NCBI GenBank assembly: GCA_049580985.1
Contig: JBAURA010000444.1
Span: forward strand, 1 to 47,768
DNA from: Chloroflexia bacterium
GTDB taxonomy: Bacteria > Chloroflexota > Chloroflexia > QHBQ01 > JADMIH01
Direction: 5' to 3'
Length of the DNA stretch: 47,768 nt
A program made the position numbers and the translations under genes. Under the pieces are notes generated by a model that had not been told where the DNA came from, searched no databases, and saw only the letters and a list, made by a program, of their open reading frames with translations. Positions 691 to 15,605 of this stretch are shown here, piece after piece. Each line of letters starts with the position of its first letter. Position 1 is the first letter of the stretch.

Positions 691-2400
691 CTAGCAGACC
701 TGATCAGTTGCTGCAACAGAGTCGATGCCAGCACAAGAAGTGGAAAACGCGTAAACCATGGTGTCACAAGCCGGCACGACTACCTGCTCGCCATATACCC
801 CAGGTGTGGTCCTAAGAGGTCGCCCCGTCTTGTACCGGCGCAACACCTCGCCACTCGCGGCATCTACATAGAATAAATGCCAGTTGCCGCACCCCAGGCA
901 TACGACGTCTTCTCCTACTTGCACTATCCCGCCCAGGATACGACCACCCAGGTTGGTGCTCCAGCGCACCTTCCCGGTAATTCGATCCAGCGCCGTCAGG
1001 AGCCCGGTAAAGCCACCGGCTATCACGTAATCGTTCCAAACAAGGGGGGTCATGTACAGATAGTTGGATATGCGCCTCTGCCAGATCAACTCGCCGCCGG
1101 TGGCAGCCAGGCAGTAGAGGTAACCGTCGAAGGAGCCGAAGTACACCCGTCCCACTTCATCCACCACCGGGTTCCCTTTGATCTCTCCTCCTGTGAGATA
1201 GCTCCACTTAATCTCGCCACTAGTCGCATCGGCAGCGTACAGGTAGCCATCGTTGCACCCAACAATCACGAGGTTTAGCTCACTGCTAAAGAAGGGGGAC
1301 GAGTGCACATAGCCACCCAACTCGGCCTCCCACACGGTAGCGCCGCTGCTCCCTTCCACCGCTACCAGGCGACCGCCTTTCTTGCCGTACTCGATCCCCA
1401 CAAACACGCGGTCTTGCTCCCGGTCTAGGGCGGGAGACGAGCCGATCCACTCGCCAGGACGTACCTCCCATACTAACTCACCGCTCTTCGCGTCGAGGCA
1501 GTACAGATAGCCATCGTAGGCACCGAAGTAGACCCTGCCGCAATTGTACGCCGGAGTTGAATGAACTCCGCGCTGAGCGTCGCGCACCGGGTAGCGCCAG
1601 CGCTCCTTGCCATCGAACGTCAGGGAGAGGAGGAATCCTCGATCGCTCCCCACGAAGATCCCATCAGGCGAGAAGCACGGCCCCGACTTGGGCGCACCGT
1701 AACGCCCCTTATTGAGGCCCTCCCAGGCCCAAAGGAGGTCGGGCGCGGACACCTCCCCCAACACTATGCGATCTGAGTTTATGCGCAGCCCAAGTTCACG
1801 CAACGTGAAGAGGTACTCGAATGGGATGCCTTGCTCCACCAGCCAGCGACTTCCAACCCGCTCATAGTTCAGCACAGTCGCCACTGCCACTACCTCTACT
1901 GTGACATTCAGCCCTTGCAGTGTTTCCACCGCCTTCTGAATGGTGGTACCCGAGTTGAGAGTGTCGTCAAGGAGCACTACCCTGGCGCCTGTAGGGAGGT
2001 CGGGACCTTCTACCAGCTTGCCGAGGCCATAGGACTTCTGCTCCTTGCGGATAACGAACCCTTTCAAAGGATAGCCCTCTTCCGCCGCTCTACACAACAG
2101 CGCATAGGTGAGTGGATCGGCCGACATGGTCACGCCACCCACGGCGTCGGGTCGATAGCGGCGTAGCTGCTCCCACAGTAGGTCCGCGGTCTGCTTCAGG
2201 CAGCGACTATCCAGCAGCACTTCGCGGCAGTCCAGGGTCCAGAAGAGAGGATAGCCTTTTGTATCCATCCCTTCCCCGAGCTTCAGCGCCCGGTCCATAA
2301 TGGCTCTCCCCAGCGCCTGGCGTGTCTCGTTATCTGCGCGCGTGTCCCGCGCAGCGTCCCTCAACAGTTGCTTAGCCTGTTCTCTGTAGACTATGGTCAT
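691..2400 (-). CDS. Phosphoribosyltransferase (PyrE-like type I PRT) fused to a PQQ-like beta-propeller repeat domain
   Basis: 569-aa ORF. The N-terminal ~200 aa carry the PRPP-binding loop VVLLDDTLNSGTT. The C-terminal ~350 aa consist of repeated propeller blades: YFGAYDGYLYCLDAKSGELVWE, GCNDGYLYAADATSGEIKWS, YFGSFDGYLYCLAATGGELIWQ, LLTALDRITGKVRWS, HLFYVDAASGEVL. Confidence 0.8.
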   Translation of the reverse strand: MTIVYREQAKQLLRDAARDTRADNETRQALGRAIMDRALKLGEGMDTKGYPLFWTLDCREVLLDSRCLKQTADLLWEQLRRYRPDAVGGVTMSADPLTYALLCRAAEEGYPLKGFVIRKEQKSYGLGKLVEGPDLPTGARVVLLDDTLNSGTTIQKAVETLQGLNVTVEVVAVATVLNYERVGSRWLVEQGIPFEYLFTLRELGLRINSDRIVLGEVSAPDLLWAWEGLNKGRYGAPKSGPCFSPDGIFVGSDRGFLLSLTFDGKERWRYPVRDAQRGVHSTPAYNCGRVYFGAYDGYLYCLDAKSGELVWEVRPGEWIGSSPALDREQDRVFVGIEYGKKGGRLVAVEGSSGATVWEAELGGYVHSSPFFSSELNLVIVGCNDGYLYAADATSGEIKWSYLTGGEIKGNPVVDEVGRVYFGSFDGYLYCLAATGGELIWQRRISNYLYMTPLVWNDYVIAGGFTGLLTALDRITGKVRWSTNLGGRILGGIVQVGEDVVCLGCGNWHLFYVDAASGEVLRRYKTGRPLRTTPGVYGEQVVVPACDTMVYAFSTSCAGIDSVAATDQVC

Positions 2401-2469: not shown

Positions 2470-5424
2470 CTAGGTATGGGCGGTATAGAAACCTGGTTCA
2501 CCATAGTCTTTACCACCATCCGAATCGCCGACGACCGGCTTAATGCCAAACGCGGATGCGCATGCCTCCTCCAGGGACATCCACCAACCTGCCTCCCATA
2601 TGGCTTCGGCTGCGGGTCCCAACGTTTCGCGTGTCGACTGCAATAAAGGCTCTAGCCAGGCGCGGACGCGGGCGGAAAGGGGGGCCCCTATACTCTCCCT
2701 GAGAGAGGCGGCTGCCGCCGCCAGCCGCAATGCCGATTCAAGACTCTGCCAGGTAGCGGCCAGACGAGCAAATACTTCGAGAGAGGCGGCTATACCCTCT
2801 TTGTCATTGAGCTCATGCTTGAGGCGCAAGCTCTCCTCCCAATGCTCATAGGCCTCGTTGTACCGCTCTTCGGCGAACAGTAGATTCCCCAGGTCATGTA
2901 GAGCGTGGGCAATGCCTTGTGTATCGTTCAGATCGCGCCTGATCAGCAAACATTCATCCAGGTAGGTGCGGGCCTGGCCGAAGTCTCCCGCTTCGAAGGT
3001 CAACACTCCCAGCCCCTCCAGCGAGGCCGAAGTGCCATGTCTGTCTTTCAGTTGGCGCCTGATCTGTAGGCTTTCCTGGTAGAACTGGCGCGCCTCGGCA
3101 TCGTCGCCGGTCTCCTGAGCAATAATGCCGAGGTTGTTGAGCGTAGAGGCGATAGACCGTTTTTCCCCGAGCCGCCGCTTGATATCTAAACTCTCCTGGT
3201 AGAGAGCACGCGCCCCCTTGTAGTCACCCTGGCGATAAGTCACACTCGCCAGATTGTTGAAGGAGGCGGCGATCCCCTGGAGGTCTCCAAGCTGTTGCCT
3301 GATCGCCAGGCTCTCCAGGTAGAGCTTGCGGGCTTCGTTATAATCGCCCTGGCGATGGCTCAAGTTGCCGGCACCGTTCAGAGCTTTGGCTCTTGCTGCC
3401 AGCGCCGCGTTGGTCAGCTTACCGGGGTCGGCGTGTTGAAGTACCCTGTTAAGCTCCAGTAGGCCCTCCTGTATATACCCCCTTACCTCGTCATCAGACC
3501 CGCCCACCCCAACAAGATCGAGCATGAAGCCGTTTCCATTGGTATGTAGCTCGGTGACGGCCAGGGCCTCGGCAAGCCTGCGCCGACCTTCGGTGAGGTA
3601 ACTGCGAACCACCCAGAAGCGGGCAAGCGCCCCCGCGATCCTCAGGGCTTGCTCAATGCAGTTGTTTGCCAGCGCCCAGGTCAGTGCCACTCTCATATTA
3701 TCGTGCTCAAGCTCCAGGCGATTCAGCCAGGTAGCCTGTGCCGCGCCAGCCAATTGGGGCTCGGCTTCCTCAGCAAGGGCCATATAGTGTGCCAGGTGCT
3801 GCTCGTGAACCATCTGTTCCTCTCCACTTTCGAGCAACCTTTCGTGAGCATACTCGCGCACCGTTTCGAGCATCGTAAAGCGAGGCTCGCCATCGTCCTG
3901 AACATCCTGGCGCAACAGGCTCTTACTAACTAACGACTCCGTCTCGTTCAGCACGTCAATCTCGGTGGAGTCTTCTATTATGCAAACGCTTTCCATTGCC
4001 TCCAGGGTGCACCCGCTCACGAATACCGCCAGCCTGCGGAATAGGGCCCTGTCCTCCGCGCTGAGCAGGTCGTAGCTCCAATCTATGGCCGCGCGCAGAG
4101 TCTGTTGCCTGGCAGGTAGATCCTTGGCCCCTCCCGTCAAGATCTTGAGCCGGCTCTCAAGGCGCGCCAGCATTGTCTGGGGTGGGAGCAACCTGATACG
4201 GGCAGCCGCAAGCTCCAGCGCCAGGGGCAAGCCGTCGAGTTTATTGCATATCGCTACGACGGCGGCTGCGTTCTCTGTGGTCAATTCGAAATCAGGCTTG
4301 ACCGCCTGAGCTCTGTTCAGGAAGAGTTGGATCGTCTCGTTCTCCAGGAGCGTCTCGAGCGATACTTTACGCCGAGGGTCCGGCAAAGCCATCGGTGGCA
4401 CCGCATGTTCCTTCTCACCATAGATGCGGAGGGCGGACCTGCTGGTCACCAGGAGTTTCAGGTTGGCGCAGCCTGACACGAAAGTTGAGATCAGCATGGT
4501 CGCTCCCAGAACCTGCTCGAAATTATCCAGGATCAGCAGCATCTGCTTCTCTTTGAGGTGATCCTTCAAACTGTCGACCAATGAGCGCCCATCGACTTCC
4601 GCCACGCTCAGCGCCCCGGCAATCGCCGAGGCGACCGAACTAGGATCGAGTTCATTGGCCAGAGCTACAAAGAAAACTCCATCGTTGAAGTTGTCGATCA
4701 TCTCCGCGCCTACTTGCAAGCTCAGGCGGGTCTTGCCTGTGCCGCCCAGGCCGGTCAGGGTCATCAAGCGCATATCGTCCCGTTGTAGCTGCTTCTTTAG
4801 GAACTCTACCTCGCGCGCGCGCCCGATAAAGGGGGTGCTTTGCAGAGGCAGATTGTGAGGCCGGTAGTTGAGGGTTTTGAGAGGCGTCGCATTTTGAGGG
4901 AGAGACTCAATGCGTAGTTGGTATATATGCTCGGGGCGTTGCAGATCCTTCAGGCAATGCTCGCCCATGTCCTCCAGCCGCGTGCCCGGAGGGAGCACGC
5001 TGTTCACCAACTCCTCAGTTGTAAGCGATAGGAGGACCTGGCCGCCATGTCCGGCTGATAGGAGACGCGCCACCCTGTTCACTGCGGGGCCGAAGTAGTC
5101 GCCGTCCCGCTCCTCTGTCATGCCGGTGTGGAGGGCCATACGCACCTTGATGCCCCCAACCACTTCCCACTGCCCCTTGTGGAGCGCTTGCTGCGCCTCC
5201 ACGGTAGCCACTATAGCGTCGCTGGCGCGGGCAAAGGCCACGCAGAAAGCATCGCCTATTGTCTTGAAGACATAGCCTTCGTGAGCAGTAAAGATCTCCT
5301 TTAGGAGGGCATCGTGCCTGGCCAGGTCCCCACGCATGGCACCAGGCTGCTCTTCCCAACGCTTGGTGCTCCCCTCTATGTCGGTGAAGAGGAATGTGAC
5401 GGTACCACTAGGTAGCTTTTCCAC
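2470..5424 (-). CDS. Class III adenylate/guanylate cyclase domain + STAND (NB-ARC-like) P-loop ATPase + TPR repeats
   Basis: 984-aa ORF.
- Cyclase motifs: GTVTFLFTDIEGSTKRWE, GDAFCVAFA, VRMALHTG..GDYFGPAVNRVARL.
- Walker A: LTGLGGTGKTRLS.
- Walker B-like: MLLILDNFEQV.
- STAND core: LDGLPLALELAAAR.
- C-terminal region: a run of 40-aa TPR units (NNLASVTYRQGDYKGARALYQESLDIKRRLGE and similar). Confidence 0.88.
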   Translation of the reverse strand: MEKLPSGTVTFLFTDIEGSTKRWEEQPGAMRGDLARHDALLKEIFTAHEGYVFKTIGDAFCVAFARASDAIVATVEAQQALHKGQWEVVGGIKVRMALHTGMTEERDGDYFGPAVNRVARLLSAGHGGQVLLSLTTEELVNSVLPPGTRLEDMGEHCLKDLQRPEHIYQLRIESLPQNATPLKTLNYRPHNLPLQSTPFIGRAREVEFLKKQLQRDDMRLMTLTGLGGTGKTRLSLQVGAEMIDNFNDGVFFVALANELDPSSVASAIAGALSVAEVDGRSLVDSLKDHLKEKQMLLILDNFEQVLGATMLISTFVSGCANLKLLVTSRSALRIYGEKEHAVPPMALPDPRRKVSLETLLENETIQLFLNRAQAVKPDFELTTENAAAVVAICNKLDGLPLALELAAARIRLLPPQTMLARLESRLKILTGGAKDLPARQQTLRAAIDWSYDLLSAEDRALFRRLAVFVSGCTLEAMESVCIIEDSTEIDVLNETESLVSKSLLRQDVQDDGEPRFTMLETVREYAHERLLESGEEQMVHEQHLAHYMALAEEAEPQLAGAAQATWLNRLELEHDNMRVALTWALANNCIEQALRIAGALARFWVVRSYLTEGRRRLAEALAVTELHTNGNGFMLDLVGVGGSDDEVRGYIQEGLLELNRVLQHADPGKLTNAALAARAKALNGAGNLSHRQGDYNEARKLYLESLAIRQQLGDLQGIAASFNNLASVTYRQGDYKGARALYQESLDIKRRLGEKRSIASTLNNLGIIAQETGDDAEARQFYQESLQIRRQLKDRHGTSASLEGLGVLTFEAGDFGQARTYLDECLLIRRDLNDTQGIAHALHDLGNLLFAEERYNEAYEHWEESLRLKHELNDKEGIAASLEVFARLAATWQSLESALRLAAAAASLRESIGAPLSARVRAWLEPLLQSTRETLGPAAEAIWEAGWWMSLEEACASAFGIKPVVGDSDGGKDYGEPGFYTAHT

Positions 5425-5472: not shown

Positions 5473-6351
5473 TCAGGATATCACATCTAATTTCTCAGAG
5501 GCTGTAGCCTCTATAGGGCCAGCGGCGAATTCCGCCTGCGGCGCTACGTTAGCGGAGGTAGCCCGCAGGATTGTTTTCAACTGGAAGAGAGTCAGGCCGG
5601 GGTGCTTACCCAGGATGCGAGTTACTATGCCTGTCATATGCGGCGCGGCAAAGCTATTGCCGGTAGCGGTGATGTAACCCCTGTTCAGCCAGGCCAACCT
5701 CACGTCTATGCCAAACGCCCCGAACTCCACGGGCGGACTGGGGTTGTAGTAGTAGAGGTAGGGATCCGGGGTGTCGTGGGAAGCCACAGAGATAACCGAG
5801 GAGTAGACCGAAGGGAAACTGGGCACAGGCATATTATTGGCTGCGGTAACTAATATCGTATTCTGAAAGTATGCCTGGTCGGCAATCTCGTGAAAGAGCG
5901 CATAGAAGTCTTTCTTAGTGGTGCCGAGACTGAGGTTGCACACATGTATGCCGTTCTCAACGCACCAGCGGAGGCCGGCAGCGAATACGGCGCCCCGTCC
6001 GATCAGCCCCGCCCCCAGCACTCTCACACTGTACAGTTCGCATTCAGGCGCTAGCGAGCGGATGATTGCGGCGCAGGCCGTGCCATGTCCATAGAGGTCC
6101 TCATGCGGCTCCTCGTTGTATGTGATGTTACCTGCCCGCTCGCTTATTGCCACGTAGCCGTTTACCGGCCCGGCCACTGCGGGGTGGTCGGCATCTATAC
6201 CACTGTCAATCACCCCTACCTTGACGCCCTGGCCTGTGCTGTTCCTCCACGCCCACTCGCTATTGATGGCTTCAAGTGGCTGCAATGGAGCAAGCTGTTG
6301 GAGCGCTTCGGACGTGAACTGCCACCCCCATGCAGGTCTACGGGTTGTCAT
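5473..6351 (-). CDS. S8 (subtilisin-family) serine peptidase, no signal peptide or propeptide apparent
   Basis: 292-aa ORF. The catalytic triad contexts are present: VGVIDSGIDADHP (Asp), YGHGTACAAII (His) and TGNSFAAPHMTG (Ser). The N-terminus is not hydrophobic. It lies 9 nt downstream of the GAF gene and 48 nt upstream of the cyclase gene. Confidence 0.85.
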   Translation of the reverse strand: MTTRRPAWGWQFTSEALQQLAPLQPLEAINSEWAWRNSTGQGVKVGVIDSGIDADHPAVAGPVNGYVAISERAGNITYNEEPHEDLYGHGTACAAIIRSLAPECELYSVRVLGAGLIGRGAVFAAGLRWCVENGIHVCNLSLGTTKKDFYALFHEIADQAYFQNTILVTAANNMPVPSFPSVYSSVISVASHDTPDPYLYYYNPSPPVEFGAFGIDVRLAWLNRGYITATGNSFAAPHMTGIVTRILGKHPGLTLFQLKTILRATSANVAPQAEFAAGPIEATASEKLDVIS

Positions 6352-6360
6352 ATGCTGTCC

Positions 6361-7257
6361 CTATTCTGCCAACACCTGGGGACGTCCACGCAGGTATTCC
6401 AGGAACCCTGCCAGCACGGTTCTGCATAAAGCAATCCCTTCCTCGCCATACCCGGCGATCTGCTGGATCAACCCGGCCAATTCCAGGGCGCCTCTCAGCG
6501 CCGGCATCTCTCCGATAGCCTCTGAGATCAGGCGTGCCTCCTCCTCAGCACCCGAGGCCCCTCTTAGCAATTGCAAAATCAAAGCGTTCAAGTCTGTGTT
6601 TACGCGCGACATCTCCAGGGCCGCGGAGGCCTGGTTGGCGAATAAACCAAGTAGTTCTATGTCGGCTGCATTGAAGGCTGCCCCGCCCTCTTTGTCGAGC
6701 AATTCTAGGACGCCGATCACTTCCCCCTCGTAGAATAGCGGCATACAAAGTATCGTCTTGGGCACATAATCCACGGCACGCTGTATATCCTCGGCTCTAC
6801 GTATATCTTGATCGGCATTTGAGACAGCCATCGGCTGTCCCGTAACCGCCACCAGGCCTGCTATTCCATGTCCCACCGGCACTCTGAACTTCTTGACCTC
6901 CTCGGCTTTGCCTCCGATAGCTACCTCGAATATCAATTCCTCTGTGTCACGATCCAGCAAGAAGAGAGCCCCCGCCCCCGCGCGAATCACCTGAGCCGCC
7001 GTTTCCACGATCGACTCCAGCACCCTGGTGTGCCTGGTGGTAGAGGCCATGGTACCCGCTGAAGAGGCAAGGACCAGCGCGCGGTACAGGCCATCAGCGG
7101 CCTTATCGCCCTCTATCAGGCGTCTCAACCGTCGGATCTCCTCCTGGTCCCTTGAGACGCTGCCATCATCCTCGCCCCTGTCGCCCCTGCGCGCGGCATT
7201 TTCGGACCAATCTCCAACCATCAAGCGTCTCCCTCCTCTACTTCCCGGCTTGCCCAC
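6361..7257 (-). CDS. GAF domain-containing protein
   Basis: 298-aa ORF. An Arg/Gly-rich N-terminus is followed by a GAF-like core (LESIVETAAQVIRAGAGALFLLDRDTEELIFEVAIG ... GIAGLVAVTGQPMAVSNA ... ILCMPLFYEGEVIGVLELLDK). The annotated start is GTG. An in-frame ATG 12 codons downstream is an alternative start. Confidence 0.7.
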   Translation of the reverse strand: MGKPGSRGGRRLMVGDWSENAARRGDRGEDDGSVSRDQEEIRRLRRLIEGDKAADGLYRALVLASSAGTMASTTRHTRVLESIVETAAQVIRAGAGALFLLDRDTEELIFEVAIGGKAEEVKKFRVPVGHGIAGLVAVTGQPMAVSNADQDIRRAEDIQRAVDYVPKTILCMPLFYEGEVIGVLELLDKEGGAAFNAADIELLGLFANQASAALEMSRVNTDLNALILQLLRGASGAEEEARLISEAIGEMPALRGALELAGLIQQIAGYGEEGIALCRTVLAGFLEYLRGRPQVLAE

Positions 7258-7262
7258 GGTGA

Positions 7263-8180
7263 TCAGATTACCTGTATTGCGCGCCGTCCTTCTTTACCCT
7301 TCCCTTCTGTGGCGGGCCTGCGCGCCAGCACCTCACCAAAGATTATTGGCAGGTGCGAATAGTTGTATGCATGGAGCTTGCCGAACTCGGTGAGATTGGC
7401 CTTCTCACCAACTGTTTCAATCATACCTTTATAAAACCGATTTCCCACGGCCACCTGCCCCGCGTCCTCGTAGCTACCGTCGTGCCTGCCAAGATCACCT
7501 GTACGGATGTCGGTGAAGCCGGTTGTAGCCAGTACCGTAGCAAGCTGGCTCATAGTAGTTGTTCTGTAGACGTAAATGCGGTCAAACCGCGCCAGATCAG
7601 CCCGTTCTGCTAGGGTAAGTTCTCCCTCTCTGCAGAAGACGTCCTTGATGTAAAGAGTGCCCCCTGGCCTGAGTACGTTGAACACGCCGGAGAAGAGCCG
7701 TTCCATGTTATACGAATAGCCTGCGGTCTCCAAGAAGAGCACAACATCGTACGTCCCATCGGCGAAAGGCAGGTAGTGGTAATCCCCAATGTACACATTT
7801 ATCGCACCTGCTAGCCCCGCCTCCTGTACGAGTCCTGTGCCTATCTTGGCTTGCACAAAAGATAGGGTAATGCCGTCGATGCGAACCCTATCTATGGCCG
7901 AGGCGATGTCTATACTCGGGCCGCACACGCCACAGCCTGCGTCCAACACCCGATCGCCGGGCTTGATGCCGGCCATCGATGCACAATACAGGTTCGATTC
8001 TCTGGCTGCCTCGGCATTGGGGGCTGACTCGACCACCCCTTTTTCGACTAATCCCGACTGGATAGTGGTACCGACGCTCTTCAGATATGCGGGCGTGGAG
8101 AGGTCATAGTAAGCTCTGATCTCTTGGATGTACCCCAGGTCCGCCTCAATCTCAACAGCTCTACCCATAGACCTATCCAC
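7263..8180 (-). CDS. Class I SAM-dependent methyltransferase
   Basis: 305-aa ORF. Motif I is DRVLDAGCGVCGP. Post-I and motif II/III-like segments are YDVVLFLET and LRPGGTLYIKD. The start is GTG and the gene is first in the minus-strand operon. Confidence 0.8.
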   Translation of the reverse strand: MDRSMGRAVEIEADLGYIQEIRAYYDLSTPAYLKSVGTTIQSGLVEKGVVESAPNAEAARESNLYCASMAGIKPGDRVLDAGCGVCGPSIDIASAIDRVRIDGITLSFVQAKIGTGLVQEAGLAGAINVYIGDYHYLPFADGTYDVVLFLETAGYSYNMERLFSGVFNVLRPGGTLYIKDVFCREGELTLAERADLARFDRIYVYRTTTMSQLATVLATTGFTDIRTGDLGRHDGSYEDAGQVAVGNRFYKGMIETVGEKANLTEFGKLHAYNYSHLPIIFGEVLARRPATEGKGKEGRRAIQVI

Positions 8181-8395
8181 TATCTTTCTCTGCTACGTCT
8201 CATGTCGATCCTCACGGGCTATTTAGAGCAGCTAGCAAAACCTGTTCTAGGGGCGGGTTTGCAACCCGCCTCTACCCGCCTGCCACCCGGTTTAGTATGC
8301 ATTCTTAATGGGTGAGGGAAAGTTGAGAGACATCGCTAAATGCCCGGCAGGAAATTTCACCTACATCCCCTCCAGGCAAGGCAATCTTAGGAAGG

Positions 8396-8427
8396 ATATA
8401 ACATGTCATGGTGACAAAGAGGTGACA
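8396..8427 (-). promoter_or_regulatory. Two TGTCACC heptamers at 11-bp phasing followed by CATGTTATAT (putative SARP operator plus -10 region) upstream of the methyltransferase operon
   Basis: The minus strand reads TGTCACC tctt TGTCACC atga CATGTTATAT. The heptamers are at 8427-8421 and 8416-8410. The lanA1 promoter has the same geometry: TGTCACT acgg CATGTTATGA. Confidence 0.5.
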
Positions 8428-8498
8428 GAGAGGTCTGCAATCGCGGATGCCCTACGCCTCTTTTCGCTCCGAATACGTCCCTTACTCTCCCCTACCAC

Positions 8499-11400
8499 CT
8501 ACCCTTTTGACATCTGCAGGTACAGATCGACCAAGTCCTGGCGAGGATCTATATCCAGGTCGTCGCGCAGGCGGCGCTGCAACTTCTGATAGGCACGTAG
8601 GCCCGCCGTACGGTCACCTCGGGCCTGACACGCCTTCATCAACCAGAGGGTGCCGTCCTCGCTCCAAGGCTCCTGCTCGATCAACTGACGCATTACATGG
8701 GCGCAATCGTCCGGTCTGCCAACCTCGAAGTAGATGATACCGAGGCGCAGCAGGATATCCCGGTAACGAGTGCTCAATTGCTCTCGCTTCGGCATCGCCC
8801 ATTCAGCGTAGGGGTTATCGGCAAGGAAGTCACCCGTATAGAGAGCTACCGCCTTTTCGAGATCAGAGACGGAGTCTAACTGCGAGGATTGCTGAGTGAA
8901 CATCACGTTATCTACGGTGGAGCCACGGGGTAACACTAACTGGTAAGCGCCATACGCAGGCTGTACGTAGCGAGAAGGGAACCCGGAAGGTATCTCAGGC
9001 TCAAGGGCATGGCGCAGACCCGCTACGGCCTGGTGCAGGTTCTTACGGGCGGCTGCGAGCACACCGCCCGGCCACAACACTTCTATTAGCTCCTCCACCG
9101 GCACGGGACGCGCCTGGTGAAGGAGATACTGGAACACGGTTTTGGAGCTTGCCCTGGGCCAGGAGACGGCTATCTTTCGGTGTAACACGGTGAAGCGTCC
9201 AAAGGTCTGGATGGAGAGTGGCTCCGGCGGAGATTCGGCCCAGGCCTTAATCGCCGCTTCCCGCGTCCGCTTCACGGCCAGGTTGGGGTGATCAACCAGT
9301 TCATTGATTGCTGCCAACACTTTCGGGTCTCCGGCTGCGCACAGTTTGCACAAGATGCTTGTCGCGTAGTCTCCTTCAAGCCCGGCGACTATCGCCTCAG
9401 TAAGCACTGGCACAGCTCGCACACCCAATCCTATGATCAACTGGCCGTGCCCGCCTGCCCGACACATTTTCAGCGCCTGAGAAGTGTGATGCTGCATTTG
9501 GAGTTTGTCGCCATTGCTCGATACCGAAATGACTGAGGCAAGATAAACGTGCGCCTGTGCCTGTGCGTATTGCGCGTTGGCTTGATAGAAGATGTCGAGC
9601 GCGGTGTTCAGGTGCATACGTGCTTCTTCCAGTTTACCAGCATCGGCAGCCGCCCCACCAAACACCAGGTGTGATAACCCTACTTCGTAGGGCACGCCCA
9701 GGGCGCGGCGTATGGCCATGCCCCTCTCGGCAGCCCGGAACGCCTCTTCATGGCGTCCTTCACGCCGTGCAAGCGCGCAGAGCCAATCAAGTGCCAGGGC
9801 GGTCTTGGGTCCGTTGTTCCGAGATTGCAGCACATCGAGCGCCTGGCTGAGGTGCAGATGCGCCTCGTTGAGCTGGCCATCGAGGAGATGGACGACACCC
9901 AGGATGAGGGTTGCCATCGCGGATTCCTCCCGGTGATCGCCGGTGTCGGCCAGGTGAAGTGCGGATTCCGCTAGCGCCCGCGCTTCTAAGCAGTCGCCGC
10001 GCAGCAAATGGATATATGCCACTGAGTTGAGCATTTCAGCTCTCTCCTCGTGCAAGCCCTGGCTCTCGCCCAGTTTCAGCAGCATCGCATACCCTGCCAG
10101 TGCCCCCTCGAAGTCGCCCAGCCTGTAACGCAGGTCTGCATTGTGACGATGCACCCTTAGCAGGGTGGTGACCAAGTTGCTACGTTCCGCAAGCTCCAAC
10201 GCCTCTTTTATCCCCGCCTGCACTTCCTCGATTGGACCTTCTACCATGTAGACGGATAAAGCCAGGGTCGAGAGCACCAGCGCTTTGTCGGAGTCATTCT
10301 CCGCGAACAGAAGGGCTTTCTTCAAGCTGATAGTGGACTCTGTGTAACGGCCTTGCTTGCTTAGCCAGTTGCCGAAGCCGTACAGGCTGAGAAAGATGGC
10401 ACCGCGATCTTCGGCCGTTCTCGAGGAAATTTCTGCCTGCCGGTAAAGGGTTTCGGCGCCAAGCAGCAGGTTATCGAACAATTGCGAGCGAGCCTGGATC
10501 AGGAGCAACCAGGGGTGGCTGGCAGCGATAACTTTCGGAAACTCCTTGACCCAACGCTCCAAACGCATGTACTGGCCGGCGGATAGGGTCACCTGGCACA
10601 TCTTGCCGAGCAAGGTTGCCGCCTCATCGTACTCACCAGCCGCCAACAGGTGGCTCATTGCCAGATCAGTCTCCTCTTTCGAGATATGGTGGGCAGCCAG
10701 TTGCCTGTGCAGAGCATGCACGGCGGCAGGCTCCAGCAGGTGCATTTGCTGGCGCAGGTACTCTCGAAAAAAGGTGAGATAGCGATAGGAAGGTTGCGTT
10801 GTGCTACCATCGTCCCCTTCTACGGAGTAAACTTCGGTGTACACACGATGCCGCTCGATTTGGAACAGGGCGCTCTCGGTACCCTTGATCCTGAGGGCGC
10901 GGCAGAGGGCCGGGTCCACCTGGTCCAGGATGGAGGTGTGCGTCAGGAACACCACAGCAGGAGTAGGGAGATGCCTCTCCATCTCCTCCCGCAGGTAGGT
11001 AGCGACAATATGCTGGATGGACCCCAGTCCCGCAATAGCACGCTCCTCATTTACCTCCGTTAGCTCAGGCCGTCCTGGATCGAGCGCACCGGCAAGAATT
11101 ACCAGGCCCGTGATCCACCCTTCCATGTAGACATCGATGATGTTGAGCGCCTTGCCATCGACCTTGCAACCGGCCGTCGACAGAAGAAAAGCCGAAGTCT
11201 CCTCCGGGCTTAGCCTTAGATCACGAGCGGCTAACATACCCACCATGCCCTGCGCCCACAGTTTTGCCAGGCTCAGCAACCGGGGAGAGCCCCACGACCC
11301 GGCTATCATGCGTAGGGCGGGAGGCGAGTAATCGATGAGTCTCACCAGCAAGGCTTGAGCCGTGCGGTCCACCAACAGATGCAGGTTGTCGACAAAGAGA

Positions 11401-12071
11401 TAATAGTAGGGATGGGGAAGCGGTAATATGGTCAGCTCGTTGAGGAGGTGGGCGAGCGCTTTCTCCGGGTCGATGGTATCGAGTGGCTCTCCCAGTCCTG
11501 GGACAGAACGGCGTAGCGATGCGTGGAGATGCAGTACAAACAGCAAGGGGTTATTGTGCTCACGCCCGATGGTAAGCCAGGCAGCTGGTATATTCGCGGC
11601 AAAGCCGGCAAGCAACATCGACTTGCCGTAACCAGGTGGGGCTGACACTAGTGTCAGTTTATGCTTTTGTACAGAGTCGGCCAGTTGCCGATAGAGATGC
11701 GGACGCTGGAACAAACCGGCAGAGGGCGTAGGAGGCGTACACTGTGAGGCCAAAACCCACACCGGGTCTGGGGTACTTACGACGCTAATCTCTGGCACGG
11801 GCGCTACAGATGGACTAGGCGTGGGAGGAGGATAAACCAGTCCGTAATTGTCAAACTCCTGGGTGCTTGGGTCTGCAAACATTGGCTGTGATTCCTCTGT
11901 TGGGGCGCTAGATAGCTTTGTAATTATTGCATGGTGTCTTATGTACCGGGCATCGTAAACCTCCACAATCCTCTTAGGGCCACTCCACCAAGCCTGTATG
12001 CGAAGGGAATGCCACGTTGCAGGATCGTAACACACGATCCTAGAGTGTCTTTCAGGTTGGCCTCGTGACAA
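8499..12071 (-). CDS. Large transcriptional regulator: P-loop ATPase (MalT/LAL-like) + TPR region + C-terminal SARP module (OmpR-type winged helix + BTAD)
   Basis: The longest ORF is 1190 aa with a TTG start. A better-supported start is the ATG at 11882 (MFADPST), preceded by GAGGA.
- Walker A: LVSAPPGYGKSMLL.
- Long TPR-like helical middle region.
- C-terminal winged helix: LSIQTFGRFTVLHRKIAVSW..KTVFQYLL..PVPVEELIEVLWP..ARKNLHQAVAGLRHALEP.
- BTAD: LEKAVALYTGDFLADNPYAEWAMPKREQLSTRYRDILLRLG...GLRAYQKLQRRLRDDLDIDPRQDLVDLY. Confidence 0.8.
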   Translation of the reverse strand: MSRGQPERHSRIVCYDPATWHSLRIQAWWSGPKRIVEVYDARYIRHHAIITKLSSAPTEESQPMFADPSTQEFDNYGLVYPPPTPSPSVAPVPEISVVSTPDPVWVLASQCTPPTPSAGLFQRPHLYRQLADSVQKHKLTLVSAPPGYGKSMLLAGFAANIPAAWLTIGREHNNPLLFVLHLHASLRRSVPGLGEPLDTIDPEKALAHLLNELTILPLPHPYYYLFVDNLHLLVDRTAQALLVRLIDYSPPALRMIAGSWGSPRLLSLAKLWAQGMVGMLAARDLRLSPEETSAFLLSTAGCKVDGKALNIIDVYMEGWITGLVILAGALDPGRPELTEVNEERAIAGLGSIQHIVATYLREEMERHLPTPAVVFLTHTSILDQVDPALCRALRIKGTESALFQIERHRVYTEVYSVEGDDGSTTQPSYRYLTFFREYLRQQMHLLEPAAVHALHRQLAAHHISKEETDLAMSHLLAAGEYDEAATLLGKMCQVTLSAGQYMRLERWVKEFPKVIAASHPWLLLIQARSQLFDNLLLGAETLYRQAEISSRTAEDRGAIFLSLYGFGNWLSKQGRYTESTISLKKALLFAENDSDKALVLSTLALSVYMVEGPIEEVQAGIKEALELAERSNLVTTLLRVHRHNADLRYRLGDFEGALAGYAMLLKLGESQGLHEERAEMLNSVAYIHLLRGDCLEARALAESALHLADTGDHREESAMATLILGVVHLLDGQLNEAHLHLSQALDVLQSRNNGPKTALALDWLCALARREGRHEEAFRAAERGMAIRRALGVPYEVGLSHLVFGGAAADAGKLEEARMHLNTALDIFYQANAQYAQAQAHVYLASVISVSSNGDKLQMQHHTSQALKMCRAGGHGQLIIGLGVRAVPVLTEAIVAGLEGDYATSILCKLCAAGDPKVLAAINELVDHPNLAVKRTREAAIKAWAESPPEPLSIQTFGRFTVLHRKIAVSWPRASSKTVFQYLLHQARPVPVEELIEVLWPGGVLAAARKNLHQAVAGLRHALEPEIPSGFPSRYVQPAYGAYQLVLPRGSTVDNVMFTQQSSQLDSVSDLEKAVALYTGDFLADNPYAEWAMPKREQLSTRYRDILLRLGIIYFEVGRPDDCAHVMRQLIEQEPWSEDGTLWLMKACQARGDRTAGLRAYQKLQRRLRDDLDIDPRQDLVDLYLQMSKG

Positions 12072-15166: not shown

Positions 15167-15220
15167 TGTCACCTAATTGTCACCTTGCTGTCACCTTTTT
15201 GTCACTACGGCATGTTATGA
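15167..15220 (+). promoter_or_regulatory. Four TGTCAC[C/T] heptamers at exact 11-bp spacing plus an extended -10-like element upstream of precursor gene 1
   Basis: TGTCACC at 15167, 15178 and 15189, and TGTCACT at 15200, each separated by 4 nt. These are followed by acgg CATGTTATGAC, which contains TG-n-TATGAC. Heptamer direct repeats with 11-bp periodicity are the known SARP binding-site architecture. Confidence 0.55.
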
Positions 15221-15341
15221 CTCCGTCTGCAGAGGACTGACCATAACGTTTAGGAGTCCCCGATATTGAACCCTCCTGAACAGCAGGCCAAATGGATCTG
15301 CCGAGTGACAAACATACCAACCAGCAAAAAAGGAGACTAAA

Positions 15342-15605
15342 GTGAGCGAGCATACATTTAACGATGAGAAACGTGAACTGGCTGCTAAGGTCGTGGATCG
15401 CATCCTGAGTGATGCCTCTTTCCGTGAGGCGCTCAAGAACGACCCGGATGCCGCTATGAACAGCACCTTCCCCGAGGAGTGGCAGGGCATATTTGAGTCC
15501 TTGGGCGATCCCGAGGTCGCTGGCTATCTGGATCAGGAGCCCATCGCAGGTGATGGCGATACCAACTGTTGCCAGGGCGGCACGGTCTGCAACCAGAGCT
15601 ACTAG
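15342..15605 (+). CDS. Lanthipeptide precursor 1 (NHLP-like leader, Cys/Ser/Thr-rich C-terminal core)
   Basis: 87 aa with a GTG start. AGGAG at 15331-15335 lies 6 nt upstream. The leader segment ELAAKVVDRILSDASFREALKNDPDAAMN resembles nitrile-hydratase-like leader peptides. A PEVAGY motif precedes the C-terminal region. The C-terminus is DTNCCQGGTVCNQSY. The gene is immediately upstream of a LanL gene. Confidence 0.8.
   Translation: MSEHTFNDEKRELAAKVVDRILSDASFREALKNDPDAAMNSTFPEEWQGIFESLGDPEVAGYLDQEPIAGDGDTNCCQGGTVCNQSY

Follow-up and report, generated by a model that had tools for sequence, protein, structure and literature searches.

A pair of heptamer direct repeats on the minus strand of the window (the whole 47,768-nucleotide stretch of Chloroflexia DNA that was analysed) very probably forms an activator-dependent promoter of the SARP-box type, as judged from its sequence. 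This site, called site A here, resembles the promoter of a lanthipeptide precursor gene, lanA1 (site B), which lies 6.8 kb away, and the likely binder of both is encoded between them. The comparisons below support placing both transcription units in one regulon, one of them headed by the precursor gene and the other by a methyltransferase gene that is followed by genes for a GAF-domain protein, an S8 peptidase and a nucleotide cyclase.

Anatomy and rarity of sites A and B

The elements of the two sites are as follows.

8421–8427, minus strand: distal heptamer of site A, TGTCACC, spanning roughly −39 to −33 when counted from the predicted start; invariant in the relatives L233 and L234
8410–8416, minus strand: proximal heptamer of site A, TGTCACC, 4 nt after the distal heptamer (11-bp period)
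8395–8403, minus strand: extended −10 of site A, TGt-TATATC, 9 nt past the proximal heptamer; formerly described as a "CATGTTAT box"
15167–15221, plus strand: site B, with three copies of TGTCACC and one of TGTCACT, a 9-nt gap ending in TGt, and the −10 TATGAC; conserved in L233

On the minus strand from 8427 to 8395 site A reads TGTCACC-tctt-TGTCACC-atgacaTGt-TATATC (to 8396, TGTCACC tctt TGTCACC atga CATGTTATAT). Site B, on the plus strand from 15167 to 15218, reads TGTCACC taat TGTCACC ttgc TGTCACC tttt TGTCACT acgg CATGTTATGA, and from its last heptamer onward TGTCACT acggcatgt TATGAC; it begins 10 nt past the stop codon of a flavoenzyme gene and lies about 120 nt before lanA1. Both sites are built from the same heptamer with 4-nt spacers, in both the octamer CATGTTAT stands 4 nt past the last heptamer, and the sole difference between them in this layout is the number of heptamers, two (both perfect) at site A and four at site B. 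A sequence-only reading of this DNA had reported the match in heptamer, spacers, octamer and spacing, and the sequence of both strands confirms it.

The repeat pair is rare. In the window TGTCACCN4TGTCACC with up to two mismatches has 4 matches where 0.34 are expected, and none of 100 shuffles reached 4. In the whole assembly (5.0 Mb in 820 contigs, 60% G+C, 90% complete) the heptamer pair with no or one mismatch is present at sites A and B only, as is the combination of heptamer, 4 nt and CATGTTAT with at most one mismatch; with two mismatches the pair has 24 further matches, against about 30 by chance. That same reading had named occurrence of the pair at many unrelated genomic sites as the observation that would speak against it, and in these 5.0 Mb the pair is confined to the two promoters. 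A third site could exist in the genome, the assembly being 90% complete. The looser pattern TGTCACY finds one extra pair (C508:64), a TGTCACT pair with irregular additional copies and no −10 at the right distance, which was rejected as a regulon site. A scan for triple heptamers over all genomes was likewise set aside as evidence on the regulator; it gave more than 120 matches in every phylum, many of them 11-bp tandem arrays with identical or nearly identical spacers.

At characterised SARP sites, direct repeats of a heptamer are separated by 4-nt spacers and overlap a poor −35, with 8 bp between the proximal repeat and the −10 (PMC10972967, PMC11301090, PMC5930380); one protomer binds each repeat, and two repeats are the minimum (PMC5930380). 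Site A with its two repeats and site B with its four have this arrangement, and a cognate SARP (OmpR-type winged helix plus BTAD) is encoded in the cluster. In all 11 of the TGTCACC-type boxes examined, the TA of the −10 falls 9 nt past the last heptamer, a gap that exceeds the textbook 8 by 1 and varies with where the heptamer register is set. No sigma-70 −35/−10 pair was called at site A, which lacks a −35 hexamer; at both sites the −10 hexamer ends in C in place of the usual T. The octamer CATGTTAT is the extended −10 (a TGn-TAT element), not a second protein site. Two earlier labels thus need revision: what had been called an operator reads, from its heptamer repeats, its missing −35 and the fixed distance to the extended −10, as an activator-dependent promoter, and the separate "CATGTTAT box" corresponds to that −10.

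The label "operator" would be apt if the adjacent protein were a repressor that blocks RNA polymerase until a signal arrives. The sites do overlap the −35 region, which is a common position for repressors (PMC11301090), but with no recognisable −35 they offer little to an unaided polymerase. The BTAD/SARP proteins described in PMC10972967, PMC11301090 and PMC5408092 are, moreover, activators, and the fixed distance to the −10 in the 11 boxes is what contact between an activator and polymerase would require. Repression is accordingly a most improbable explanation of these sites, and activation is the reading followed below.

The likely regulator encoded beside site A

One gene in the window has the properties that a cognate regulator should have.

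8499–12071, minus strand: putative activator of 1190 residues with a MalT-like STAND ATPase, TPR and a C-terminal SARP module (about 8502–9260)

Its stop codon lies 71 nt upstream of the first heptamer of site A, on the same strand. Pfam finds a BTAD domain at residues 1067–1184 (5.6e-18), TPR repeats and a weak AAA_16 match; residues 108–543 match the N-terminal ATPase half of the NCBIfam MalT model (2.3e-42, below the cut-off for the whole protein), and residues 977–1184 match the NCBIfam AfsR/SARP model. As a single query the last 250 residues give weak matches to AfsR and EmbR, and a profile of eleven homologous C-termini matches the AfsR SARP chain 8hvr over its full length (2.9e-26) and EmbR (8.6e-18), with the winged helix and the BTAD covered in both. 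A GerE (LuxR-type) domain, as would stand at the C-terminus of MalT and LAL proteins, is absent from the regulator by Pfam. The predicted protein is then a STAND ATPase-TPR sensor with a complete C-terminal SARP module as its output. Among the window's open reading frames scanned with Pfam there is no second winged-helix regulator, the others being of XRE or LuxR type, and this protein is the likely binder of the TGTCACC heptamers at both sites. Its domain order of ATPase (about 108–543), TPR and SARP (about 950–1190) is not that of AfsR, and since it reverses that of every characterised large SARP, the activating function is an assumption: the regulator is presumed to act like a large SARP though it is built otherwise.

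The heptamer and the regulator travel together. The best ortholog of the regulator (41% identity) is in a Chloroflexia metagenome-assembled genome of the same order and a different family, and downstream of it, starting 39 nt after the stop codon, is TGTCACC gatt TGTCACC aggctatgc TATAAA. Five further regulator loci, in Anaerolineae, Caldilineae and unclassified Chloroflexota, were found by a pattern search built from the alignment of two TGTCACC regulators (30–36% identity). In four of these five, TGTCACY-N4-TGTCACC follows the regulator gene on its own strand, with a TAnnnT-like hexamer 9 nt later, and the contig of the fifth ends about 0.5 kb past the gene; chance alone would give about 0.001 such pairs in the 53 kb of these loci. 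These loci were retrieved partly by the helix peptide ARKNLHQA, so that the invariance of the helix among them is by selection, and the presence of the box is independent of it. In this family the box seems as a rule to sit just past the regulator stop codon.

Paralogues of the same architecture (26–29% identity) have other heptamers at the equivalent position. TGTAACT pairs lie beside paralogues in two genomes, in both ahead of a FabH-like gene, and TGTAAGT pairs lie beside paralogues in two genomes, in both ahead of a gene for a 38-codon peptide. The predicted recognition helices pair with the heptamers as follows, and the helix is constant inside each heptamer group and different between groups.

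Predicted helix ARKNLHQAVA: heptamer TGTCACC
Predicted helix RDFKVALNAL: heptamer TGTAACT
Predicted helix NNTFHxSLxRL: heptamer TGTAAGT

This covariation bears on the question of whether the repeats might be a Pho box, or the site of another OmpR/PhoB-family regulator, with both operons induced by phosphate limitation. The anatomy of sites A and B is compatible with such a site. Pho boxes, too, consist of direct repeats of 7 bp, set 4 bp apart in place of the −35, the Escherichia coli Pho consensus CTGTCAT and the Streptomyces unit GTTCACC both resemble TGTCACC, and AfsR and PhoP share sites. A heptamer that varies with the recognition helix of the adjacent regulator is, however, not explained by a global regulator, and a Pho regulon would have several sites, whereas the 5.0 Mb hold no other TGTCACC pair. 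In addition, the genome's own pstS promoter carries TGTTAAC repeats, and the window encodes no response regulator. Phosphate control is very unlikely on these grounds, and the SARP module of the neighbouring gene remains the preferred candidate for the heptamers.

Genes of the site A unit and their boxes in relatives

Downstream of site A is a run of five genes with the same direction, and site B precedes the first gene of the lanthipeptide operon.

7263–8180, minus strand: class I SAM methyltransferase, CMAS/UbiE-like, the first gene past site A; start probably the ATG at 8168
6361–7257, minus strand: protein with a GAF domain, a conserved companion of the S8 peptidase
5473–6351, minus strand: cytoplasmic S8 (subtilisin-like) peptidase, candidate leader peptidase
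2470–5424, minus strand: class III nucleotide cyclase-NB-ARC-TPR fusion (the cyclase-STAND protein), 48 nt after S8 and probably co-transcribed
691–2400, minus strand: phosphoribosyltransferase-beta-propeller fusion (PRT-propeller), last gene of the co-directional run; syntenic in L233 only
15342–15605, plus strand: lanA1 precursor, leader ending in EVAGY, the first gene past site B
8248–8274, no strand assigned: palindromic sequence of the 5′ leader, one of several copies of a dispersed REP-like element, with no part in the switch

The gaps between the genes from the methyltransferase to the PRT-propeller are 5, 9, 48 and 69 nt, and simple scans called no convincing internal terminator or promoter in the run. 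Read-through from the regulator gene could also feed this operon. The PRT-propeller is absent from the other GAF-S8 loci. On the other side, lanA1 is the first gene of a class IV lanthipeptide operon, whose products include an ABC exporter that carries a cyclic-nucleotide-binding domain.

The leader between site A and the methyltransferase was searched for further control elements. The hairpin at 8248–8274 was rejected as an attenuator, having at least 7 copies in the genome and being missing from the L233 and L234 spacers. A 22-codon mini-ORF (8360–8292, with GGAGG upstream) was rejected as well; neither L233 nor L234 retains its start codon, and L234 has an indel besides. An Rfam search of the leader (8100–8520) gave no match, and the folding of the 206-nt leader is unremarkable (z = −1.2).

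Relatives of the methyltransferase on metagenome contigs were found by a protein search; a DNA-pattern search of metagenome contigs for them gave distant matches only. An identical methyltransferase is encoded on a 1.6-Mb contig (P0006) found by the protein search. The closest, L233 (88% identity), has full synteny and both boxes, with LanL, lanA, the flavoenzyme and a gene of no assigned product on one side and the regulator, methyltransferase, GAF, S8, cyclase-STAND and PRT-propeller genes on the other. L234 (86% identity) holds the end of the regulator gene, the box, and the methyltransferase, GAF and S8 genes. The three regulator-methyltransferase spacers, when aligned, have a mean column identity of 72%, and the longest stretch in them without variation is TCTCTGTCACCTCTTTGTCACCATG, of 25 nt, with ATGTTATA two positions further on. 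In the more distant L235 (66% identity) the methyltransferase and GAF-S8 are divergent units with a box each, TGTCACC gcat TGTCACT ctcatctgc TATATA before the methyltransferase and TGTCACT aatt TGTCACC cctgcatgc TATAAA before GAF-S8. The box thus follows both the methyltransferase and GAF-S8 through a changed gene order, and no other observation argues as strongly that these genes are true targets. No box is present ahead of GAF-S8 in G035, so the GAF-S8 pair is not always in the regulon. A second TGTCACC pair in G035 (C240:411) has no −10 at the right distance and is probably due to chance; it sits about 340 nt before a gene whose product has a pyruvate:ferredoxin oxidoreductase-like N-terminus.

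These relatives also weigh on the idea that site A is a dead or chance copy of the lanA1 site, with its genes transcribed by read-through or from another promoter and not co-regulated with the precursor operon. Site A has only two heptamers to the four at lanA1, its −10 is imperfect, there is a weak sigma-70-like match at 8208–8179, and no terminator is present between the regulator gene and the operon, all of which would fit a decayed site. A dead copy would nonetheless hardly keep both heptamers perfect, form the best conserved part of the spacer in relatives, occupy the place past the regulator stop codon that is standard for the box in the family, and accompany the methyltransferase and GAF-S8 in the different gene order of L235; two repeats, for their part, suffice as a minimum for characterised SARPs (PMC5930380). 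We give a non-functional site A little credence, and a working SARP-box promoter is the better account.

The proposal of the sequence-only reading that both operons belong to one regulon is supported by sequence within the genome, where the pair is unique to two promoters and its likely binder is encoded between the sites, and by the comparative data, namely the box downstream of orthologous regulators, the retention of both sites in the syntenic relative and the boxes of L235.

The mechanism that these observations suggest seems, taken as a whole, quite likely to be correct. Two protomers of the regulator's SARP module would bind the two heptamers of site A, which are spaced by one helical turn and lie on the same face of the DNA. 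Filling the place of the missing −35, the regulator would recruit RNA polymerase to the extended −10 (TGtTATATC) 9 nt downstream. Transcription would start near 8388, a predicted position, and cover the methyltransferase, GAF, S8 and cyclase-STAND genes, with the PRT-propeller gene probably included. The regulator would also bind the four heptamers ahead of lanA1, and in this way the precursor/synthetase/exporter operon and the processing/signalling operon would be switched on jointly. On the model of MalT and AfsR, ATP together with a ligand sensed by the ATPase-TPR part presumably controls activation. The GAF-S8 pair would then most likely cut leaders at (E/D)V-x-GY. The sequence itself shows the anatomy of the sites, their uniqueness in the assembly, the domains of the regulator and the conserved pairing of the box with regulator and with target genes; from these we infer that the regulator binds and activates, where transcription starts, how far the operon extends and what the protease cuts.

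Proposed link to peptide maturation and comparison with known systems

The earlier reading had also suggested that the methyltransferase, the S8 peptidase and the cyclase downstream of site A may be functional parts of the lanthipeptide pathway, and for the S8 peptidase and its GAF partner the relatives give this strong support. Orthologs of the S8 (46–69% identity) are present in 45 of 401 sampled Chloroflexota genomes (the window's own counted), nearly always one per genome. GAF adjoins S8 in 19 of 20 fetched neighbourhoods, and it is directly upstream on the same strand in 18; the exceptions are L204, where GAF comes after S8, and L200, which has no GAF match that passes the filter. The GAF protein would be an obligate partner of the S8. 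A cyclic-nucleotide ABC exporter is adjacent in five S8 neighbourhoods and a LanL synthetase in five, and G220 and G211 have LanL, four lanA, ABC(cNMP), GAF and S8 genes on one strand, so that the conserved GAF-S8 pair lies inside class IV operons. Precursor-like ORFs with EV.GY number 14 in the S8 loci against 0 in eight controls (one reversed-sequence and seven permuted-motif), and of the 13 loci with an S8 of 57% identity or more, 12 have a precursor-like ORF with (E/D)V.GY. The cores of these precursors are diverse, either rich in Cys, Ser and Thr or rich in aromatic residues and without Cys. In G035 the gene driven by the box encodes a 143-residue precursor with VEVRGY and a Cys-rich tail; the next genes encode a B12-radical-SAM enzyme and two ABC proteins, and GAF-S8 and cyclase-STAND lie close by.

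The S8 itself has an intact Asp-His-Ser triad (IDSG, HGT, GNSFAAP) and no signal peptide. Of the features to be expected of a leader peptidase, the window's enzyme thus has the triad and a cytoplasmic location, and its orthologs in G220, G211 and other loci have the position beside precursor and exporter genes. Its best NCBIfam match is QhpE (2.4e-34, 118.6 bits against a cut-off of 165), which is a small cytoplasmic S8 enzyme that cuts the QhpC leader before export by an ABC transporter (PMC7876137). Unlike QhpE, the S8 of the window scores below the family cut-off, is paired with GAF, and is tied to the (E/D)VxGY leaders of lanthipeptides and other peptides. On these sequence grounds its most likely role is that of a leader peptidase acting at the (E/D)VxGY junction.

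For the cyclase-STAND protein and the methyltransferase, neighbourhoods in relatives give moderate support to membership in the pathway. The cyclase-STAND gene is syntenic in L233 and probably in L234, and it lies beside GAF-S8 in G035; a link to the nucleotide-binding domain of the exporter is plausible. The methyltransferase is absent from distant S8 loci. In L236 it lies between a flavoenzyme and GAF-S8, and in L237 beside NHLP-type precursor and C39-ABC genes, and because of these neighbourhoods tailoring by the methyltransferase is favoured over lipid methylation for self-protection, for which there is a precedent in the cinnamycin cluster (PMC5408092).

Several known systems share parts of this arrangement. 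At the afsS promoter of Streptomyces coelicolor (cryo-EM structures 8hvr, 8jke and 8k60), two AfsR protomers occupy adjacent direct repeats; these overlap a −35 of poor quality, and about 8 bp separate the proximal one from the −10 (PMC11301090). Winged helix plus BTAD, STAND ATPase and TPR are common to AfsR and the window regulator, but AfsR has the order SARP-ATPase-TPR and the window regulator ATPase-TPR-SARP, the latter's ATPase is MalT-like and not AfsR-like, and the host is a member of the Chloroflexota, not the Actinomycetota. In comparison with the AfsR site, those of the window have the heptamer TGTCACC, a 9-nt gap and an extended-type −10. PimR, the SARP-LAL of the pimaricin cluster, resembles the window regulator in having a SARP fused to a large ATP-binding part, and its operators are two or three heptamers with 4-nt spacers, bound by cooperative protomers that need at least two repeats (PMC5930380). 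PimR differs in that its SARP is N-terminal, its operator does not overlap the −35 and it has a single target gene, whereas two promoters, of two and four repeats, are predicted here. Also related is CinR1 of the class II lanthipeptide cinnamycin, a cluster-encoded SARP that activates the precursor/synthetase operon through repeats spaced by a helical turn upstream of the −10 (PMC5408092); it is a small actinomycete SARP without a sensor part, and it acts through three hexamer repeats on one biosynthetic operon. The ATPase region of the window regulator is in turn like that of Escherichia coli MalT, which ends in a LuxR-type helix-turn-helix where the window regulator ends in a SARP module. 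MalT activates several promoters through repeated asymmetric boxes.

What appears to be new, on the sequence comparisons made here, is the identification of site A as a probable second site of the regulator, the standard position of the box and the 9-nt rule, together with the apparent link between recognition helix and heptamer and that between the box and the methyltransferase and GAF-S8 genes. The box can be defined as TGTCACY-N4-TGTCACC, 9 nt and then the −10, and it gives a rule for finding targets, which is to look for the heptamer pair directly behind the regulator stop codon and at other positions in the cluster. SARP promoter logic, so far actinomycete, would be extended to the Chloroflexota with a reversed protein architecture. 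Shared regulation would tie auxiliary genes to the class IV lanthipeptide pathway, chiefly the GAF-partnered S8 as candidate leader peptidase; the other auxiliaries assigned in this way are the methyltransferase and the cyclase, the latter perhaps supplying the exporter that a cyclic nucleotide would gate. The SARP module, expressed alone, could wake such silent clusters in a heterologous host.

A broader reading, offered tentatively and with rather more doubt than confidence, is that the two SARP-box promoters wire an undescribed and portable peptide-maturation chassis, in which an S8 protease that always goes with a GAF partner would cut leaders ending in (E/D)V-x-GY, an ABC transporter gated by a cyclic nucleotide from the cyclase-STAND sensor would export the product, and the STAND-SARP protein of reversed domain order would co-activate the whole along with the precursors. 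If this is true, the chassis serves class IV lanthipeptides in this organism, a B12-radical-SAM peptide in G035, and aromatic-rich cores elsewhere. We know of no dedicated leader peptidase that has been identified for class IV lanthipeptides, and the chassis, if it exists, would supply one.

Leader of the predicted site A transcript

The TGTCACC pair before the methyltransferase-GAF-S8-cyclase operon (site A) is followed by a predicted leader, the first ∼90 nt of which (window 8300-8394, minus strand) are well conserved in L233 and L234, two close relatives that are syntenic with the window in this region. This stretch can fold into a stem (GCCUGGAGGGGAU...AUUUCCUGCCGGGC), a possible RNA regulatory element; Rfam holds no family matching the conserved stretch. 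The leader also carries a dispersed palindromic element, GTAGGGGCGGGTTT(C/G)AAACCCGCCCCTAC, of which the window's genome has at least seven copies, including the following:

Window 8248-8274, copy in the site A leader
Contig C225, 4387
Contig C229, 5551
Contig C436, 8257
Contig C495, 11996
Contig C562, 379

The leader copy is an insertion that close relatives do not have, and the element is present as well in one relative, L146.

Boxes of related regulators

The TGTAAGT boxes of paralogous STAND-SARP regulators, which lie directly 3′ of the regulator genes, precede 38-codon genes (MKFLSRLDWRIVYVLLVISAFAAAGGASTGGGGWSFP, MNKLWSKLDPKVLYMLIALGAFIGAASATVNPCGWSMP) in L142 (G030, contig C3) and L141 (G028, contig C44); the products may be small peptides that are secreted or modified. 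Two loci of Anaerolineae type (L151, 10796-11367; L155, 9005-9298) have small antitoxin-like genes inserted between regulator gene and TGTCACC box, which shifts the box 0.5-0.9 kb from the regulator stop codon.

Similar repeats elsewhere

A cluster of irregularly spaced TGTCAC repeats opens another contig of the window's genome (C508, 64-125; TGTCACT caac TGTCACT agaaa TGTCAC ... TGTCAC), and is followed by an ORF of 148 codons and a STAND gene of XRE type; no −10 hexamer lies at the SARP distance from these repeats. Contig C385 contains, near a tRNA gene, GTCACAAAAAATGTCACAAAA, which resembles this cluster. Upstream of pstS on C385 (about 2620-2700) are TGTTAAC gct TGTTAAC and an additional TGTTAAT, with a tRNA gene and a stretch of GGGATTA repeats alongside; these TGTTAAC-type repeats are a candidate Pho box of this organism. 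TGTCACC arrays with an 11-bp period and at least three copies occur in many phyla, including Bacteroidota, Bacillota, Pseudomonadota and Actinomycetota, and also in archaea (genome contigs, loci L020-L099). They often lie in apparently non-coding DNA and may be iterons, recombinase arm sites or plain tandem repeats.

The GAF-S8 pair and its precursors

Across Chloroflexota, the gene pair for the putative S8 leader peptidase and its GAF partner is accompanied by precursors with (E/D)V-x-GY at the end of the leader:

L186 (G220, contig C27), 1036-10815
L187
L189-L198
L019, 4565-4996

Their cores range from lanthipeptide-like to aromatic-rich without Cys, and one Cys-rich core adjoins a B12-radical-SAM enzyme. 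The GAF-S8 pair looks like a shared leader-removal module for several peptide chemistries.
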